Positions 2,092 to 9,787 of a stretch of DNA of 64,000 nt are shown here, in pieces; within the stretch, counting starts at the first letter, position 1, and the number at the start of each line of letters is the position of its first letter. A program made the position numbers and the translations under genes. The stretch comes from Escherichia coli (GTDB taxonomy: Bacteria; Pseudomonadota; Gammaproteobacteria; Enterobacterales; Enterobacteriaceae): assembly GCF_003334405.1 (NCBI RefSeq), contig NZ_QOWM01000006.1; one strand, 5' to 3'. Under the pieces are notes generated by a model, which ran no database searches, was not told the origin of the DNA, and was given only the letters and a program-made list of their open reading frames with translations.

Positions 2092-2164
2092 GTGAGGCAC
2101 TCGGTTATGAATTACCGCGATGCTACAATGTGGCGCGAAGAATGTTAACCCTCTGGAGCGTTTT

Positions 2165-4594
2165 GTGTCGTCGTTGCCCGTTGCTGCCGTCTTACCTGAA
2201 TTACTTACCGCTCTCGATTGTGCGCCGCAGGTATTATTAAGTGCGCCGACCGGGGCCGGGAAATCAACCTGGCTGCCGCTGCAACTGCTGGCGCATCCCG
2301 GCATTAACGGGAAAATTATCCTGCTGGAGCCGCGTCGTCTGGCGGCGCGTAACGTCGCGCAACGGCTGGCGGAGCTGCTTAACGAAAAGCCAGGCGATAC
2401 CGTTGGCTACCGGATGCGTGCGCAAAACTGCGTCGGGCCGAATACCCGCCTGGAAGTGGTTACCGAAGGCGTGCTGACGCGCATGATCCAGCGTGACCCG
2501 GAACTGAGCGGTGTTGGACTGGTGATCCTTGATGAATTTCATGAGCGCAGCTTGCAGGCGGATTTGGCGTTGGCGCTGTTACTCGATGTGCAACAAGGTC
2601 TGCGTGATGACCTTAAACTGCTGATTATGTCGGCTACCCTGGACAACGACCGCTTGCAGCAAATGCTGCCAGAAGCGCCTGTCGTCATCTCAGAAGGGCG
2701 CTCGTTTCCGGTTGAACGCCGTTATTTACCGCTGCCCGCGCATCAGCGTTTTGACGATGCCGTTGCGGTAGCCACCGCTGAAATGCTGCGTCAGGAAAGC
2801 GGATCATTACTGTTATTTTTACCTGGCGTCGGAGAAATTCAGCGTGTGCAGGAACAACTGGCTTCGCGCATCGGCAGTGATGTATTGCTCTGCCCGCTGT
2901 ATGGCGCGTTGTCGCTGAACGATCAGCGAAAAGCGATCCTCCCGGCACCGCAAGGGATGCGCAAAGTGGTGCTGGCGACCAATATTGCTGAAACCAGTTT
3001 AACCATTGAAGGTATTCGTCTGGTGGTGGATTGTGCCCAGGAGCGTGTGGCGCGTTTTGATCCGCGCACGGGGCTTACGCGACTGATTACTCAACGCGTT
3101 AGCCAGGCATCCATGACGCAGCGTGCCGGGCGCGCCGGGCGTCTGGAGCCGGGTATCAGCCTGCATTTAATCGCCAAAGAACAAGCAGAACGCGCCGCGG
3201 CGCAAAGTGAACCGGAGATCTTACAAAGCGATCTTTCCGGTTTGCTGATGGAATTACTGCAATGGGGATGCAGCGATCCGGCGCAGATGAGCTGGCTGGA
3301 TCAACCGCCAGTAGTGAATCTACTGGCCGCGAAACGTCTGTTACAAATGCTGGGGGCACTGGAGGGTGAACGGCTTAGTGCGCAAGGGCAAAAAATGGCA
3401 GCGCTGGGTAACGATCCGCGTTTAGCGGCAATGCTGGTTAGCGCGAAGAACGACGACGAAGCTGCTACCGCGGCAAAAATTGCCGCCATTCTCGAAGAGC
3501 CGCCACGGATGGGCAATAGTGACCTGGGCGTGGCGTTTTCGCGCAATCAACCAGCCTGGCAGCAACGTAGTCAGCAACTGTTAAAACGCTTAAACGTACG
3601 TGGCGGTGAGGCAGACAGTTCGCTTATCGCGCCGCTACTTGCCGGGGCGTTTGCCGATCGCATTGCTCGTCGCCGTGGGCAAGATGGACGCTATCAACTG
3701 GCAAACGGCATGGGAGCGATGCTCGATGCCAACGACGCGCTAAGCCGCCACGAATGGTTGATCGCACCGTTATTATTGCAGGGCAGCGCCTCGCCGGATG
3801 CGCGGATTTTACTGGCGCTGCTGGTCGATATTGATGAGTTAGTACAACGCTGCTCGCAGCTGGTACAGCAGTCTGACACTGTGGAGTGGGATGACGCGCA
3901 AGGTACGCTGAAAGCCTGGCGTCGGCTACAAATCGGTCAGTTGACGGTGAAAGTGCAGCCGCTGGCGAAACCGTCAGAAGACGAGTTGCATCAGGCGATG
4001 CTTAATGGCATCCGTGATAAAGGTTTAAGCGTGCTCAACTGGACGGCGGAAGCGGAACAGCTACGCTTGCGTTTGTTATGCGCCGCAAAGTGGTTGCCGG
4101 AATATGACTGGCCAGCGGTTGATGATGAAAGTTTATTGGCAGCGCTGGAAACGTGGCTGCTGCCACATATGACTGGCGTACATTCACTACGCGGCCTGAA
4201 ATCACTCGACATTTATCAGGCACTACGCGGATTACTTGATTGGGGAATGCAGCAACGTCTGGATAGTGAATTGCCTGCGCATTACACTGTGCCGACGGGA
4301 AGCCGGATCGCCATTCGTTATCATGAAGATAACCCGCCCGCGCTGGCGGTGAGAATGCAAGAGATGTTTGGCGAGGCCACCAATCCGACGATCGCCCAGG
4401 GGCGCGTGCCGCTGGTGCTGGAGTTGCTTTCACCTGCCCAAAGGCCATTACAAATCACACGAGATTTGAGCGCCTTCTGGAAAGGAGCGTACCGTGAGGT
4501 GCAAAAAGAGATGAAAGGGCGTTATCCCAAACATGTCTGGCCGGACGACCCGGCAAATACTGCACCGACGCGACGGACGAAAAAGTATTCGTAA
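2165..4594 (+). CDS. hrpB: ATP-dependent RNA helicase HrpB (DEAH-box)
   Basis: ORF 2120..4594; Walker A APTGAGKST and DEFH box (ILDEFHERS); start placed at in-frame GTG 2165 to give the 809-aa form (start choice uncertain). Confidence 0.88.
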   Translation: MSSLPVAAVLPELLTALDCAPQVLLSAPTGAGKSTWLPLQLLAHPGINGKIILLEPRRLAARNVAQRLAELLNEKPGDTVGYRMRAQNCVGPNTRLEVVTEGVLTRMIQRDPELSGVGLVILDEFHERSLQADLALALLLDVQQGLRDDLKLLIMSATLDNDRLQQMLPEAPVVISEGRSFPVERRYLPLPAHQRFDDAVAVATAEMLRQESGSLLLFLPGVGEIQRVQEQLASRIGSDVLLCPLYGALSLNDQRKAILPAPQGMRKVVLATNIAETSLTIEGIRLVVDCAQERVARFDPRTGLTRLITQRVSQASMTQRAGRAGRLEPGISLHLIAKEQAERAAAQSEPEILQSDLSGLLMELLQWGCSDPAQMSWLDQPPVVNLLAAKRLLQMLGALEGERLSAQGQKMAALGNDPRLAAMLVSAKNDDEAATAAKIAAILEEPPRMGNSDLGVAFSRNQPAWQQRSQQLLKRLNVRGGEADSSLIAPLLAGAFADRIARRRGQDGRYQLANGMGAMLDANDALSRHEWLIAPLLLQGSASPDARILLALLVDIDELVQRCSQLVQQSDTVEWDDAQGTLKAWRRLQIGQLTVKVQPLAKPSEDELHQAMLNGIRDKGLSVLNWTAEAEQLRLRLLCAAKWLPEYDWPAVDDESLLAALETWLLPHMTGVHSLRGLKSLDIYQALRGLLDWGMQQRLDSELPAHYTVPTGSRIAIRYHEDNPPALAVRMQEMFGEATNPTIAQGRVPLVLELLSPAQRPLQITRDLSAFWKGAYREVQKEMKGRYPKHVWPDDPANTAPTRRTKKYS

Positions 4595-4604
4595 GGTTGG
4601 TTTT

Positions 4605-4693
4605 CTCCCTCTCCCTGTGGGAGAGGGCCGGGGTGAGGGCATCAGCGCGCACGTTCACCCTCACCCTAACCCTCTCCCTCAAGGGAGAGGGGA
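4605..4693. repeat. GC-rich compound palindromic repeat: three consecutive hairpins (CCCTCTCCC/GGGAGAGGG; GGGTGAGGG/CCCTCACCC; CCCTCTCCC/GGGAGAGGG)
   Basis: Perfect 9-bp inverted repeats at 4607..4627, 4631..4666 and 4670..4691 in the hrpB-mrcB spacer; resembles enterobacterial intergenic repeat families, exact family not assigned. Confidence 0.6.
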
Positions 4694-4789: not shown

Positions 4790-7324
4790 ATGGCCGGGAA
4801 TGACCGCGAGCCAATTGGACGCAAAGGGAAACCGACGCGTCCGGTCAAACAAAAGGTAAGCCGTCGTCGTTACGAAGATGACGATGATTACGACGATTAT
4901 GATGACTATGAGGATGAAGAACCGATGCCGCGCAAAGGTAAGGGCAAAGGCAAAGGGCGTAAGCCTCGTGGCAAACGCGGCTGGCTATGGCTACTGCTAA
5001 AACTGGCTATCGTTTTTGCCGTGCTGATCGCCATTTACGGCGTTTATCTCGATCAAAAAATTCGTAGCCGTATTGATGGCAAGGTCTGGCAACTGCCTGC
5101 GGCAGTTTATGGCCGAATGGTCAATCTTGAGCCAGACATGACCATCAGCAAGAACGAGATGGTGAAGCTGCTGGAGGCGACCCAGTATCGTCAGGTGTCG
5201 AAAATGACCCGTCCTGGCGAATTTACCGTGCAGGCCAACAGCATTGAGATGATTCGCCGTCCGTTTGATTTCCCGGACAGTAAAGAAGGACAGGTGCGCG
5301 CGCGTCTGACCTTTGATGGCGATCATCTGGCGACGATCGTCAATATGGAGAACAACCGTCAGTTCGGTTTCTTCCGTCTTGATCCGCGTCTGATCACCAT
5401 GATCTCTTCGCCAAACGGTGAGCAGCGTCTGTTTGTGCCGCGCAGTGGTTTCCCGGATTTGCTGGTGGATACTTTGCTGGCGACAGAAGACCGTCATTTT
5501 TACGAGCATGATGGAATCAGTCTCTACTCAATCGGACGTGCGGTGCTGGCAAACCTGACCGCCGGACGCACGGTACAGGGTGCGAGTACGCTGACGCAAC
5601 AGCTGGTGAAAAACCTGTTCCTCTCCAGCGAGCGTTCTTACTGGCGTAAAGCGAACGAAGCTTACATGGCGCTGATCATGGACGCGCGTTACAGCAAAGA
5701 CCGTATTCTTGAGCTGTATATGAACGAGGTGTATCTCGGTCAGAGCGGCGACAACGAAATCCGCGGCTTCCCGCTGGCAAGCTTGTATTACTTTGGTCGC
5801 CCGGTAGAAGAGCTAAGCCTCGACCAGCAGGCGCTGTTAGTCGGTATGGTGAAAGGGGCGTCCATCTACAACCCGTGGCGTAACCCAAAACTGGCGCTGG
5901 AGCGACGTAATCTGGTGCTGCGTCTGCTGCAACAGCAACAGATTATTGATCAAGAACTCTATGACATGTTGAGTGCCCGTCCGCTGGGGGTTCAGCCGCG
6001 CGGTGGGGTGATCTCTCCTCAGCCAGCCTTTATGCAACTGGTGCGTCAGGAGCTGCAGGCAAAACTGGGCGATAAGGTAAAAGATCTCTCCGGCGTGAAG
6101 ATCTTCACTACCTTTGACTCGGTGGCCCAGGACGCGGCAGAAAAAGCCGCCGTGGAAGGCATTCCGGCACTGAAGAAACAGCGTAAGTTGAGCGATCTTG
6201 AAACTGCGATTGTGGTCGTCGACCGCTTTAGTGGTGAAGTTCGTGCGATGGTCGGAGGTTCTGAGCCGCAGTTTGCGGGCTACAACCGTGCGATGCAGGC
6301 GCGTCGTTCGATTGGTTCCCTTGCAAAACCAGCGACTTATCTGACGGCCTTAAGCCAGCCGAAAATCTATCGTCTGAATACGTGGATTGCGGATGCGCCA
6401 ATTGCGCTGCGTCAGCCGAATGGCCAGGTCTGGTCACCGCAGAATGATGACCGTCGTTATAGCGAAAGCGGCAGAGTGATGCTGGTGGATGCGTTGACCC
6501 GTTCGATGAACGTGCCGACGGTAAATCTGGGGATGGCGCTGGGGCTGCCTGCGGTTACGGAGACCTGGATTAAACTGGGCGTACCGAAAGATCAGTTGCA
6601 TCCGGTTCCGGCAATGCTGCTGGGGGCGTTGAACTTAACGCCAATCGAAGTGGCGCAGGCATTCCAGACCATCGCCAGCGGTGGTAACCGTGCACCGCTT
6701 TCTGCGCTGCGTTCGGTAATCGCGGAAGATGGCAAAGTGCTGTATCAGAGCTTCCCGCAGGCGGAACGCGCTGTTCCGGCGCAGGCGGCGTATCTGACAC
6801 TATGGACCATGCAGCAGGTGGTACAACGCGGTACGGGTCGTCAGCTTGGGGCGAAATACCCGAACCTGCATCTGGCAGGGAAAACAGGGACTACCAACAA
6901 TAACGTAGATACCTGGTTTGCGGGCATTGACGGCAGCACGGTGACCATCACCTGGGTCGGCCGTGATAACAACCAGCCGACCAAACTGTATGGTGCCAGC
7001 GGGGCAATGTCGATTTATCAGCGTTATCTGGCTAACCAGACGCCAACGCCGCTGAATCTTGTTCCGCCAGAAGATATTGCAGATATGGGCGTGGACTACG
7101 ACGGCAACTTTGTTTGCAGCGGTGGCATGCGTATCTTGCCGGTCTGGACCAGCGATCCGCAATCGCTGTGCCAGCAGAGCGAGATGCAGCAGCAGCCGTC
7201 AGGCAATCCGTTTGATCAGTCTTCTCAGCCGCAGCAACAGCCGCAACAGCAACCTGCTCAGCAAGAGCAGAAAGACAGCGACGGTGTAGCCGGTTGGATC
7301 AAGGATATGTTTGGTAGTAATTAA
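4790..7324 (+). CDS. mrcB: Penicillin-binding protein 1B (bifunctional glycosyltransferase/transpeptidase)
   Basis: ORF 4775..7324 trimmed to ATG 4790 ([14 protein letters not shown]..., 844 aa); GT51 motif [12 protein letters not shown]; SxxK motif in SIGSLAKP; single TM helix after basic/acidic N-terminus. Confidence 0.94.
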
Positions 7325-7543: not shown

Positions 7544-9787
7544 ATGGCGCGTTCCAAAACTGCTCAGCCAAAACACTCACTGCGTAAAATCGCAGTTGTA
7601 GTAGCCACAGCGGTTAGCGGCATGTCTGTTTATGCACAGGCAGCGGTTGAACCGAAAGAAGACACTATCACCGTTACCGCTGCACCTGCGCCGCAAGAAA
7701 GCGCATGGGGGCCTGCTGCAACTATTGCGGCGCGACAGTCTGCTACCGGCACTAAAACCGATACGCCGATTCAAAAAGTGCCACAGTCTATTTCTGTTGT
7801 GACCGCCGAAGAGATGGCGCTGCATCAGCCGAAGTCGGTAAAAGAAGCGCTTAGCTACACGCCGGGTGTCTCTGTTGGTACGCGTGGCGCATCCAACACC
7901 TATGACCACCTGATCATTCGCGGCTTTGCGGCAGAAGGCCAAAGCCAGAATAACTATCTGAATGGCCTGAAGTTGCAGGGCAACTTCTATAACGATGCGG
8001 TCATTGACCCGTATATGCTGGAACGCGCTGAAATTATGCGTGGCCCGGTTTCCGTGCTTTACGGTAAAAGCAGTCCTGGCGGCCTGTTGAATATGGTCAG
8101 CAAGCGTCCGACCACCGAACCGCTGAAAGAAGTTCAGTTTAAAGCCGGTACTGACAGCCTGTTCCAGACTGGTTTTGACTTTAGCGATTCGTTGGATGAT
8201 GACGGTGTTTACTCTTATCGCCTGACCGGTCTTGCGCGTTCTGCCAATGCCCAGCAGAAAGGGTCAGAAGAGCAGCGTTATGCTATTGCACCGGCGTTCA
8301 CCTGGCGTCCGGATGATAAAACCAATTTTACCTTCCTTTCTTACTTCCAGAACGAGCCGGAAACCGGTTATTACGGCTGGTTGCCGAAAGAGGGAACCGT
8401 TGAGCCGCTGCCGAACGGTAAGCGTCTGCCGACAGACTTTAATGAAGGGGCGAAGAACAACACCTATTCTCGTAATGAGAAGATGGTCGGCTACAGCTTC
8501 GATCACGAATTTAACGACACCTTTACTGTGCGTCAGAACCTGCGCTTTGCTGAAAACAAAACCTCGCAAAACAGCGTTTATGGTTACGGCGTCTGCTCCG
8601 ATCCGGCGAATGCTTACAGCAAACAGTGTGCGGCATTAGCGCCAGCGGATAAAGGCCATTATCTGGCACGTAAATACGTCGTTGATGATGAGAAGCTGCA
8701 AAACTTCTCCGTTGATACCCAGTTGCAGAGCAAGTTTGCCACTGGCGATATCGACCACACCCTGCTGACCGGTGTCGACTTTATGCGTATGCGTAATGAC
8801 ATCAACGCCTGGTTTGGTTACGACGACTCTGTGCCACTGCTCAATCTGTACAATCCGGTGAATACCGATTTCGACTTCAATGCCAAAGATCCGGCAAACT
8901 CCGGCCCTTACCGCATTCTGAATAAACAGAAACAAACGGGCGTTTATGTTCAGGATCAGGCGCAGTGGGATAAAGTGCTGGTCACCCTAGGCGGTCGTTA
9001 TGACTGGGCAGATCAAGAATCTCTTAACCGCGTTGCCGGGACGACCGATAAACGTGATGACAAACAGTTTACCTGGCGTGGTGGTGTTAACTACCTGTTT
9101 GATAATGGTGTAACACCTTACTTCAGCTATAGCGAATCGTTTGAACCTTCTTCGCAAGTTGGGAAGGATGGTAATATTTTCGCACCGTCTAAAGGTAAGC
9201 AGTATGAAGTCGGCGTGAAATATGTACCGGAAGATCGTCCGATTGTAGTTACTGGTGCCGTGTATAATCTCACTAAAACCAACAACCTGATGGCGGACCC
9301 TGAGGGTTCCTTCTTCTCGGTTGAAGGTGGCGAGATCCGCGCACGTGGCGTAGAAATCGAAGCGAAAGCGGCGCTGTCGGCGAGTGTTAACGTAGTCGGT
9401 TCTTATACTTACACCGATGCGGAATACACCACCGATACTACCTATAAAGGCAATACGCCTGCACAGGTGCCAAAACACATGGCTTCGTTGTGGGCTGACT
9501 ACACCTTCTTTGACGGTCCGCTTTCAGGTCTGACGCTGGGCACCGGTGGTCGTTATACTGGCTCCAGTTATGGTGATCCGGCTAACTCCTTTAAAGTGGG
9601 AAGTTATACGGTCGTGGATGCGTTAGTACGTTATGATCTGGCGCGAGTCGGCATGGCTGGCTCCAACGTGGCGCTGCATGTTAACAACCTGTTCGATCGT
9701 GAATACGTCGCCAGCTGCTTTAACACTTATGGCTGCTTCTGGGGCGCAGAACGTCAGGTCGTTGCAACCGCAACCTTCCGTTTCTAA
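7544..9787 (+). CDS. fhuA: Ferrichrome outer membrane transporter FhuA (TonB-dependent receptor)
   Basis: 747-aa ORF with signal peptide, TonB box DTITVTA, C-terminal aromatic residue (terminal F) typical of beta-barrel OMPs. Confidence 0.97.
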   Translation: MARSKTAQPKHSLRKIAVVVATAVSGMSVYAQAAVEPKEDTITVTAAPAPQESAWGPAATIAARQSATGTKTDTPIQKVPQSISVVTAEEMALHQPKSVKEALSYTPGVSVGTRGASNTYDHLIIRGFAAEGQSQNNYLNGLKLQGNFYNDAVIDPYMLERAEIMRGPVSVLYGKSSPGGLLNMVSKRPTTEPLKEVQFKAGTDSLFQTGFDFSDSLDDDGVYSYRLTGLARSANAQQKGSEEQRYAIAPAFTWRPDDKTNFTFLSYFQNEPETGYYGWLPKEGTVEPLPNGKRLPTDFNEGAKNNTYSRNEKMVGYSFDHEFNDTFTVRQNLRFAENKTSQNSVYGYGVCSDPANAYSKQCAALAPADKGHYLARKYVVDDEKLQNFSVDTQLQSKFATGDIDHTLLTGVDFMRMRNDINAWFGYDDSVPLLNLYNPVNTDFDFNAKDPANSGPYRILNKQKQTGVYVQDQAQWDKVLVTLGGRYDWADQESLNRVAGTTDKRDDKQFTWRGGVNYLFDNGVTPYFSYSESFEPSSQVGKDGNIFAPSKGKQYEVGVKYVPEDRPIVVTGAVYNLTKTNNLMADPEGSFFSVEGGEIRARGVEIEAKAALSASVNVVGSYTYTDAEYTTDTTYKGNTPAQVPKHMASLWADYTFFDGPLSGLTLGTGGRYTGSSYGDPANSFKVGSYTVVDALVRYDLARVGMAGSNVALHVNNLFDREYVASCFNTYGCFWGAERQVVATATFRF

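Follow-up and report, generated by a model that had tools for sequence, protein, structure and literature searches.

In-frame length variation in the low-complexity tracts at the ends of penicillin-binding protein 1b of Escherichia coli

Described systems and the mrcB locus

Contingency loci of Haemophilus, Neisseria and Campylobacter contain long perfect tracts, usually of 1–5-nt units, whose frequent length changes alternately open and close a reading frame. The mrcB gene resembles these loci in having short tandem DNA repeats within a coding region, the copy number of which would be altered by slipped-strand mispairing. However, the mrcB tracts contain two perfect copies at most, their units are 3, 6 or 9 nt long, none of the changes shifts the frame, a single length is common to 94% of genomes, and derivatives are stable. 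No long perfect tract, frameshift or expansion of the contingency or phase-variable kind was found in the mrcB tracts. Amino-acid-repeat length polymorphism is also displayed by the disordered linkers of bacterial envelope and division proteins such as TolA, FtsK and FtsN. These linkers are charged or Gln/Pro low-complexity segments with conserved composition and a length that drifts by in-frame indels, as in PBP1b; unlike them, PBP1b has one tract that overlaps an internal translation start region. We know of no earlier report on the PBP1b tracts specifically, and a literature search for length polymorphism of the mrcB tracts brought up no earlier report, the hits being marker papers on plants and fungi that are unrelated to it. 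Phosphorylation of the tyrosine in the DDY motif was considered as well, but the literature search yielded nothing on PBP1b and this candidate was dropped.

The published PBP1b isoform system concerns the same gene and the same protein. The alpha and gamma isoforms and the disordered N-terminal domain were described by Broome-Smith 1985 and Chalut 2001, as cited in PMC13423804, and the two N-terminal tracts analysed here are residues 28–44 and 49–56 of the published 1–60 alpha peptide. According to the main text of PMC13423804 (Nat Microbiol 2026), the gamma isoform begins at the internal Met46 and an M46L substitution gives the alpha form alone; alpha and gamma were seen as bands of 94.2 and 88.9 kDa, respectively, and the gamma band was abolished by M46L. 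The same text reports that the alpha isoform fortifies the septum, and that alpha-PBP1b is brought to the division site by its N-terminal peptide, R6 included, with FtsA as the probable intermediary. Function was assigned there to the first ~14 residues and R6, and the PBP1b tail was termed an intrinsically disordered domain. The words "acidic", "linker" and "negatively charged" are absent from the main text of that paper. Gram-positive class A PBPs have extended cytoplasmic N-termini; according to work cited in PMC13423804, these bind GpsB. [quoted passage not shown]

The window, i.e., the whole 64-kb stretch of DNA that was analysed, contained mrcB (ponB) at 4790..7324 on the plus strand, as for all features below, with 844 codons and a stop codon. 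Both N-terminal repeats lie within this open reading frame, whose annotated start is ATG 4790, with the same start in RefSeq for other strains. The mechanical ORF listing began at TTG 4775, which was rejected as the start codon because RefSeq and the reference protein begin at ATG 4790. In the protein collection the product matched PBPB_ECOLI exactly; it is identical to K-12 PBP1b, and its residues 53–804 matched "Penicillin-binding protein 1B" in PDB entries 3VMA, 3FWL and 5FGZ at E = 0. [quoted passage not shown] The gene order hrpB–mrcB–fhuA was found in the ORFs of the window and in the RefSeq annotation of 21 E. coli genomes. A hydrophobic stretch in the translation (codons 65–87, 4982..5050), kept in orthologues, presumably forms the membrane anchor that closes the cytoplasmic tail; judging from its hydrophobicity and from the published domain maps available in PMC13423804, it is probably a transmembrane helix. 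All of the solved PBP1b structures span residues 53/58–804 only.

Repeat structure of the tracts

The tail opens with a conserved peptide present in the alpha isoform only (codons 1–27, 4790..4870), which was nearly invariant among 80 Enterobacteriaceae orthologues. It is followed by an acidic Asp/Glu/Tyr tract with an imperfect 9-nt codon repeat (codons 28–44, 4871..4921) and by the membrane-adjacent Lys-Gly tract KGKGKGKG, present in both isoforms (codons 49–56, 4934..4957). GATGATTACGACGATTATGATGACTATGAG is located at 4883–4912 and AAAGGTAAGGGCAAAGGCAAAGGG at 4934–4957. The acidic D/Y run and the K/G run after it were thus found with the DNA that the original prediction had quoted for the start of mrcB. 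The Q/P-rich C-terminus that it had also described was present at 7190..7260, past residue 804, where every solved structure ends.

Tandem Repeats Finder reported period 9/18 arrays at 4870–4917 with scores of 38–54 and a period 6 array at 4932–4956 with a score of 36. The array with a score of 54 was the top tandem repeat of the window, in which 18 rows had scores ≥30. The units are arranged head to tail, and perfect copies are minimal, never more than two: GATGAT, GGCAAAGGCAAAGG, and GCAACAGC twice. The polymorphic core of the acidic tract (4883..4899) consists of GATGAT at 4883–4888, the site of the GAT loss, and of the pair GATGATTA/GACGATTA with a 9-nt spacing, the site of the DDY loss. 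In the Lys-Gly tract, no perfect tandem is longer than the 14-nt GGCAAAGGCAAAGG (4943..4956), at which the 6-nt deletion of one KG takes place. In the C-terminal tract, the polymorphic core (7226..7251) carries the two copies of GCAACAGC 9 nt apart (7234–7241 and 7243–7250), where 9 nt are lost, and the alignment of 26 Escherichia genes placed a 12-nt deletion at 7226–7237.

Synonymous recodings of the same peptides were as periodic as the native DNA or more so. The lag-9 match of the acidic tract was 0.714 against an expected 0.733, and the lag-6 match of the Lys-Gly tract was 0.625 against an expected 0.675. The longest perfect tandem of the acidic tract was 7 nt, compared with a mean of 15 nt in the recodings, which places the K-12 tract below 97% of them in this respect (lower-tail P ~0.03). 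The DNA is no more repetitive than the peptide requires, and the repeat is a property of the peptide, not of the DNA. The proposal of short reiterated codon units was borne out as far as the period 9/18 and period 6 arrays go, but these arrays are weak and imperfect, and their repetitiveness does not exceed what the encoded peptide imposes. As the nucleotide repeats are no stronger than those of recodings, the rate of slippage must be low. Selection against slippage-prone codons was rejected, since the median lower-tail P was 0.44 over 71 distinct orthologous tracts; for this reason no selection on codon choice is claimed, despite the P of ~0.03 in K-12. No structured RNA or known family was found by Rfam within the tracts in the 5' region. 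The sole matches, sub-threshold ones to microRNA hairpin models, fell on the intergenic palindrome at 4607–4691.

Length alleles in Escherichia genomes

The census set comprised 5,425 complete E. coli genomes. Alleles lacking whole repeat units were found in the N-terminal tail (-3, -6 and -9 nt) and in the C-terminal tract (-9 and -12 nt). The -3 allele, in which one GAT is lost and DDDD becomes DDD, was present in ~195 of the 5,425 genomes (180 + 15, in two sequence versions), including strains ETEC1738, MLI121 and LR14. The sequence versions of the GAT deletion are GAT-TAC and GAC-TAC. The -6 allele, in which one GGCAAA is lost and KGx4 becomes KGx3, was detected with a junction probe in 143 of the 5,425 genomes, 11 of which also lacked the GAT; strains MS10858 and LR14 are examples. 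The 90–95% identity band of a KG-only query contained exactly the same 143 genomes, so that no further KG allele, -12 or other, exists among the 5,425. The -9 allele, in which one DDY unit is lost, was found in at least one genome, that of strain CFS3292, and an acid-only census gave 196 of 5,425 genomes as non-reference. Altogether, the N-terminal tail was shortened in ~6% of the complete E. coli genomes and had the K-12 length in 94%. The C-terminal -9 nt allele was more frequent, with ~772 of 5,425 genomes (~14%), a count that sums 205 and 567 genomes in low-identity bands in which all nine sampled rows spanned 166 nt instead of 175. A Shigella flexneri protein has a 4-residue (12-nt) deletion in the C-terminal Q/P tract. 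Complete length invariance, named beforehand as the outcome that would speak against the original prediction, was not seen at either end of the protein, and the in-frame length variation that it had suggested for the PBP1b tail exists as alleles that are all multiples of three.

A query lengthened by one GAT and one GGCAAA placed no genome ahead of those with reference-length alleles, and +3 and +6 expansions are therefore absent from the 5,425 genomes. A +9 allele is possible in at most two genomes, within the 90–95% band of the acid-only query. Simple slippage would be expected to give both gains and losses, and contractions alone were found.

In an alignment of 26 Escherichia mrcB genes, all indels were in frame and confined to the three tracts, with none in the 2.3-kb catalytic core. 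Each deletion takes out one copy of a perfect or near-perfect short direct repeat. The alleles were identical among laboratory derivatives of one strain and are stable within lineages. The term slippage-prone in the original prediction holds on an evolutionary timescale, given the whole-unit losses at direct repeats and the KG loss on at least three haplotypes, but not as hypermutability, given that only contractions occur, that 94% of genomes retain the K-12 length and that derivatives are stable.

Both tracts persist with varying lengths among 80 Enterobacteriaceae species. The acidic tract is present in all orthologues with 9–16 acidic residues, and the basic segment has 8–11 basic residues within 16–26 positions. 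Species of other genera than Escherichia usually have KGx3; KGx4 is the state of E. coli and E. albertii.

These data show repeat tracts evolving in an ordinary way within a disordered tail that was known before; the feature is real but hardly new. The finding carries little weight alone, the protein having been sequenced in 1985 and in-frame unit loss in disordered tails being familiar; a census now exists for tail regions that are missing from all crystal constructs. Because the polymorphic acidic tract lies in an isoform-specific segment tied to fortification of the division site, the natural alleles are ready-made spacer-length variants.

Origin of the alleles and the internal start

We consider it probable (about 0.8) that the PBP1b ends are low-complexity, disordered segments whose length evolves via small replication-slippage deletions. 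Selection appears to keep charge and approximate length, not the exact sequence, and would thereby leave both N-terminal tracts as reiterated GAY/TAY and AAR/GGN codons. At adjacent identical copies of 3, 6 or 8–9 nt, slipped-strand mispairing would occasionally drop one copy in frame; the shortened proteins would be tolerated, and the C-terminal Gln/Pro tract may be subject to the same process. We infer both the slippage mechanism and the near-neutrality of the alleles. KGx3 was found on at least three unrelated haplotypes, mutually 53–99 substitutions apart, as expected for slippage, the homoplasy being that of a gene tree built from 22 E. coli sequences and not of a core-genome phylogeny. 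The KGx3 haplotypes and their KGx4 partners were A37/GF130 with O18:H1, PapRG-04-4 with PNUSAE008512, and LR14 with AHM8C212RI, and within each pair no other difference was present across the first 330–700 nt of the gene. Since each KGx3 haplotype has a locally identical undeleted partner, the KG deletion appears to be recurrent.

It is considerably less probable that each length allele arose once and spread by homologous recombination, in which case the alleles would be ordinary polymorphisms shuffled among lineages and the tracts would not be intrinsically unstable. Recombination is frequent in E. coli and the mrcB gene tree is mosaic: strain 2017.09.02CC clusters with 2012C-4502 overall, yet its 5' end is B2-like. 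Many of the KGx3 genomes, moreover, look like one extraintestinal (B2-type) lineage, including NC101, M1/5, NGF1 and urinary isolates. The KG deletion of LR14, however, lies between lineage-specific substitutions (gene positions 126 and 204/208) that are also present in the undeleted AHM8C212RI, and because of these common substitutions an import would need both breakpoints inside ~80 nt. The same reasoning applies to PapRG-04-4 versus PNUSAE008512 and to A37/GF130 versus O18:H1, the last two haplotypes differing by 5 substitutions across the whole gene. A single origin is also opposed by the -3, -6 and -9 states found in separate Escherichia species and by the two different sequence versions in which the GAT deletion is known. 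The canonical GAT deletion has no upstream variable site within the gene and its nearest downstream marker is ~110 nt away; with markers so sparse, an imported patch is possible for that allele. Short-patch recombination is thus a possible source of shared alleles, especially the GAT deletion.

Adaptive tuning of the tract lengths, with shorter tracts altering the divisome reach of alpha-PBP1b or the alpha:gamma ratio and being selected, e.g., in extraintestinal pathogens, is improbable in our view. The acidic tract does separate the divisome-targeting peptide from the membrane anchor in the septum-fortifying isoform described in the main text of PMC13423804, and KGx3 is frequent in one group of extraintestinal isolates of human and animal origin. 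Tract lengths differ systematically between genera, and the presence of contractions alone could mean a selective bound on length. However, the changes amount to one or two residues of a disordered 60-residue tail, whereas species that all keep the system differ much more widely in charge and length. Furthermore, the alleles were found across isolates of many hosts and sources, and neither the GAGGA motif nor the Met46 ATG is touched by any deletion. Sequencing or assembly errors in repetitive DNA can practically be dismissed: some assemblies are long-read only and such reads make low-complexity indel errors, but all indels are multiples of three that remove whole repeat units, identical alleles occur in 143–180 genomes from unrelated laboratories and countries, the alleles track haplotype clades, and RefSeq proteins of these lengths have WP accessions common to several strains.

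The Met46 ATG (4925..4927), the start of the gamma isoform in the text of PMC13423804, lies exactly between the acidic and basic tracts. It is preceded at a distance of 10 nt by the Shine-Dalgarno-like GAGGA in codons E41–D42 (4910..4914), so that the sequence contains an in-frame start at codon 46 with a candidate ribosome-binding site upstream of it. Predicted pairing with the 3' end of the 16S rRNA was -6.1 kcal/mol for GAGGA and -6.6 kcal/mol for the Met1 site, and the Met46 site ranked second, after Met1, among 62 in-frame ATG/GTG/TTG codons. The acidic tract is specific to alpha, between the peptide targeting the division site and Met46, and the Lys-Gly tract forms a positively charged membrane-adjacent segment common to alpha and gamma. 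From the sequence, the unstructured, purine-rich mRNA of the acidic tract with its terminal GAGGA may double as the region where ribosomes bind for the Met46 start. This role may be a mere by-product of GA-rich Asp/Glu codons.

A dual purpose of the acidic tract is a speculative and rather unlikely extension of this idea. The tract would act as an alpha-specific spacer presenting the FtsA-binding peptide and as an mRNA landing pad in which GAGGA drives initiation at Met46 and sets the alpha:gamma ratio. If so, tract-length alleles and genus differences would tune the share of PBP1b devoted to fortification of the septum versus general wall repair. As the end of the acidic tract probably overlaps the gamma ribosome-binding region, heed should be paid when this part of the gene is recoded or tagged.

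Among 75 orthologues, the codon equivalent to Met46 was ATG in 65 and GTG in 6 (71/75 with either), and a GAGG/AGGA element was located upstream of it in ~70. No part of the mrcB mRNA was less structured than the acidic tract, in which 50-nt windows folded at -0.7 to -3.8 kcal/mol compared with a gene mean of -12.1 kcal/mol.

Tract layout of mrcB and the level of the repetition

The mrcB (ponB) gene (4790-7324, + strand) is flanked by hrpB (2120-4594) and fhuA (7544-9787). Its product, PBP1b, has 844 residues and is identical to PBPB_ECOLI, the K-12 reference; the solved structures 3VMA, 3FWL and 5FGZ are matched over residues 53-804. The acidic tract covers the 17 residues Y28-E44 (4871-4921, + strand). 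It is separated by P45, M46, P47 and R48 from the KG tract K49-G56, KGKGKGKG (4934-4957, + strand). RKPRGKRG follows directly, and W65 begins the hydrophobic, presumed membrane anchor. The two DNA strings on which the original prediction of slippage-prone repeats was based were found where it had placed them, at 4883-4912 and 4934-4957. With Tandem Repeats Finder, the acidic region at 4870-4917 gave arrays of period 9/18 scoring 38-54, and the highest of these (54) was the top tandem repeat of the 64-kb window; in the KG region, 4932-4956 formed an array of period 6 with score 36.

The identical amino acids were recoded 5,000 times with local codon usage as a null model. Periodicity was 0.714 observed versus 0.733 expected at lag 9 in the acidic tract, and 0.625 versus 0.675 at lag 6 in the KG tract. 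Since synonymous recodings equalled or surpassed the observed nucleotide periodicity, the repetition is a property of the peptide. Perfect tandems in the K-12 acidic tract reached 7 nt at most, versus a mean maximum of 15 nt in recodings (lower-tail P about 0.03), which looks like GAT/GAC and TAC/TAT codon alternation interrupting the repeats; as a general trend this was rejected, the median lower-tail P being 0.44 across 71 distinct orthologous acidic tracts. Perfect repeats were small in all three tracts: GATGAT at 4883-4888 (acidic tract), GGCAAAGGCAAAGG at 4943-4956 (KG tract), and two copies of GCAACAGC with 9-nt spacing at 7234-7241 and 7243-7250 (C-terminal Gln/Pro-rich tract, 7190-7260).

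As protein, the tracts are clearly beyond chance. In 80 of 80 Enterobacteriaceae orthologues, taken from contigs with one genome per species, an acidic run of Asp/Glu/Tyr preceded a basic segment of Lys/Arg/Gly. Among the 75 in which the motif was placeable, the acidic tract held 9-16 acidic residues and the basic segment 8-11 basic residues within 16-26 positions, which points to tails of conserved composition and drifting length. A contig titled Chryseobacterium sp. 18061 also encoded an enterobacterial-type PBP1b, 84% identical to that of E. coli and with the full N-terminal tail; this record is probably contaminated or mislabelled.

Length alleles in complete E. coli genomes

Of 5,426 complete E. 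coli genomes, 5,425 were hit by a 220-nt query over both N-terminal tracts, 368 of them at <99% identity. The four lowest-ranked sampled records were all shorter, by 3, 3, 6 and 9 nt, and alignment of the short alleles gave two sites, with loss of one GAT (DDDD to DDD) or of one GGCAAA (four Lys-Gly pairs to three, KGx4 to KGx3). Alleles were counted with deletion-junction probes, built so that the reference allele gives no seed match. The GAT loss was found with a GAT|TAC junction in 180 genomes and, in a second version, with a GAC|TAC junction in 15; the KG deletion junction was found in 143, and 11 genomes carried the GAC|TAC and KG deletions together. Queries of 100 nt agreed with the probes, giving 196 non-reference genomes (193 + 3) for the acidic tract and exactly 143 at 90-95% identity for the KG tract. 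The weakest acidic-tract match, CFS3292, lacked 9 nt, one whole DDY unit, lost between the 9-nt-spaced repeats GATGATTA/GACGATTA. Expansions by GAT or GGCAAA were absent, as a query with both extra units ranked no genome above reference-length alleles. Overall, about 328 genomes (6%) had a shortened N-terminal tail, so that the predicted length variation was seen across the 5,425 genomes as whole-unit, in-frame losses.

Polymorphism is highest in the C-terminal tract, ahead of both N-terminal tracts. With a 175-nt query of the 3' end, 205 + 567 genomes fell in low-identity bands (some 14% of the complete E. coli set), and nine of nine sampled rows from these spanned 166 nt versus 175. The 9-nt loss was aligned as GCAACAGCC, between both GCAACAGC copies (core 7226-7251). 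At this site, four residues (QQQP) were missing from an 840-residue Shigella flexneri protein, and Escherichia species E1V33 had a 12-nt deletion. The passing remark that the C-terminus is similarly Q/P-rich was therefore correct, and deletions of 9 nt and of 12 nt or four residues occur there.

Recurrence of the deletions

Complete mrcB sequences were aligned for 22 E. coli strains together with four further Escherichia species. All gaps lay inside the three tracts and were multiples of three, and none of the 26 genes had a gap across the roughly 2.3 kb between the N- and C-terminal tracts. The remaining 2,368 columns, of which 429 were variable, gave a neighbour-joining mrcB tree with scattered length states. 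DDD, KGx3 and the C-terminal 9-nt deletion were all present in a separate Escherichia species, SCPM-O-B-8794.

Local haplotypes are the cleanest evidence on recurrence. For the first 700 nt, A37 and GF130 (KGx3) had the same sequence as O18:H1 (KGx4), from which they differed by 5 substitutions gene-wide; PapRG-04-4 (KGx3) and PNUSAE008512 (KGx4) were identical for the first ~420 nt of mrcB, as were LR14 (KGx3) and AHM8C212RI (KGx4) for the first ~330 nt. LR14 and AHM8C212RI shared private substitutions on both sides of the KG deletion, 27 nt before it and 45-50 nt after it, and the three KGx3 backgrounds differed from one another by 53-99 substitutions. The deletion might have spread by recombination, but import would take a patch of <80 nt on three separate occasions, so recurrent loss within E. 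coli is the simpler reading. The case is weaker for the GAT deletion, with two sequence versions, at least one more background and few marker sites nearby. KGx3 was the usual state outside Escherichia; since E. coli and E. albertii both have KGx4 with identical DNA, KGx3 alleles within E. coli are best taken to be secondary contractions.

Classification as a contingency or phase-variable locus was rejected: perfect copies numbered two at most, every change was in frame, 94% of genomes held a single length, and same-strain derivatives (the NC101 and JA series, DS566 and its derivatives, and many K-12 laboratory strains) kept one allele. Assembly artefact was rejected given identical alleles in >100 genomes of unrelated origin with RefSeq protein accessions in common. 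The original interpretation was thus supported: length changes in mrcB were confined to the tracts, whole-unit, in-frame and recurrent. Low-rate slippage deletions probably act on disordered, compositionally constrained tails of PBP1b. Such change is an ordinary phenomenon in a very well known protein and of low novelty; only the allele census and the overlap of the acidic tract with an internal translation start are mildly new.

The internal start at Met46 and the surroundings of mrcB

According to PMC13423804, E. coli PBP1b has two isoforms, alpha from Met1 and gamma from Met46. Division-site enrichment and activity are described there for alpha only, requiring the N-terminal peptide (R6, conserved residues 1-14), probably via FtsA. 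The entire tail is termed an intrinsically disordered domain, and the paper's main text uses neither "acidic" nor "linker". Only alpha contains the acidic tract, which joins the targeting peptide to the remainder of PBP1b; the KG tract is a membrane-adjacent basic segment common to both isoforms. All crystal constructs start at residue 53-58 and stop at 804, and therefore both polymorphic regions are outside the known structure.

Met46 sits exactly in the gap between the acidic and KG tracts, and a GAGGA (4910-4914) is within the final acidic-tract codons. When all 62 in-frame ATG/GTG/TTG codons of mrcB were ranked by predicted pairing with the 16S rRNA 3' end, Met1 and Met46 came first and second (-6.6 and -6.1 kcal/mol, respectively). 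In predicted folding of the whole mRNA, the seven least-structured 50-nt windows all began within 4868-4892, at -0.7 to -3.8 kcal/mol versus a gene mean of -12.1 +/- 3.5. The Met46-equivalent codon was ATG in 65 of 75 orthologues and GTG in 6; valine at this position was encoded by start-capable GTG in 6 of 6 (Klebsiella, Leclercia and Silvania), representing only about three independent lineages, which suggests that the internal start is retained in these genera. It appears to be lost in Kluyvera (CGT) and Pseudescherichia (GCG). The upstream GAGG/AGGA element was conserved in about 70 of the 75, and no natural deletion among those aligned hit GAGGA or the Met46 ATG. From these features we infer that the acidic-tract mRNA may also serve as the gamma ribosome-binding region; this role could equally be a by-product of GA-rich Asp/Glu codons. 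The start overlap, together with the 2026 alpha-isoform finding (PMC13423804), makes tract length a testable variable.

The hrpB-mrcB spacer is occupied by a GC-rich imperfect palindrome of roughly 85 nt (4607-4691; arms 4613-4639 and 4658-4684) carrying CCCTCTCCCT/AGGGAGAGGG motifs. Rfam gave only sub-threshold microRNA-hairpin matches to it. By annotation coordinates in 21 E. coli genomes, the spacer was about 93, 131 or 195 nt depending on the strain, and in behaviour the palindrome resembles a mobile intergenic repeat. Plasmid-classed records accounted for three of the 5,425 mrcB matches, and one of the 5,426 genomes matched neither the 5' nor the 3' end of mrcB. Strain ETEC1738 has fhuA annotated as a pseudogene with a frameshift. 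In strain ZH193, the first gene annotated downstream of mrcB is one for a fimbrial protein instead of fhuA, which implies insertion or rearrangement in the mrcB-fhuA interval.
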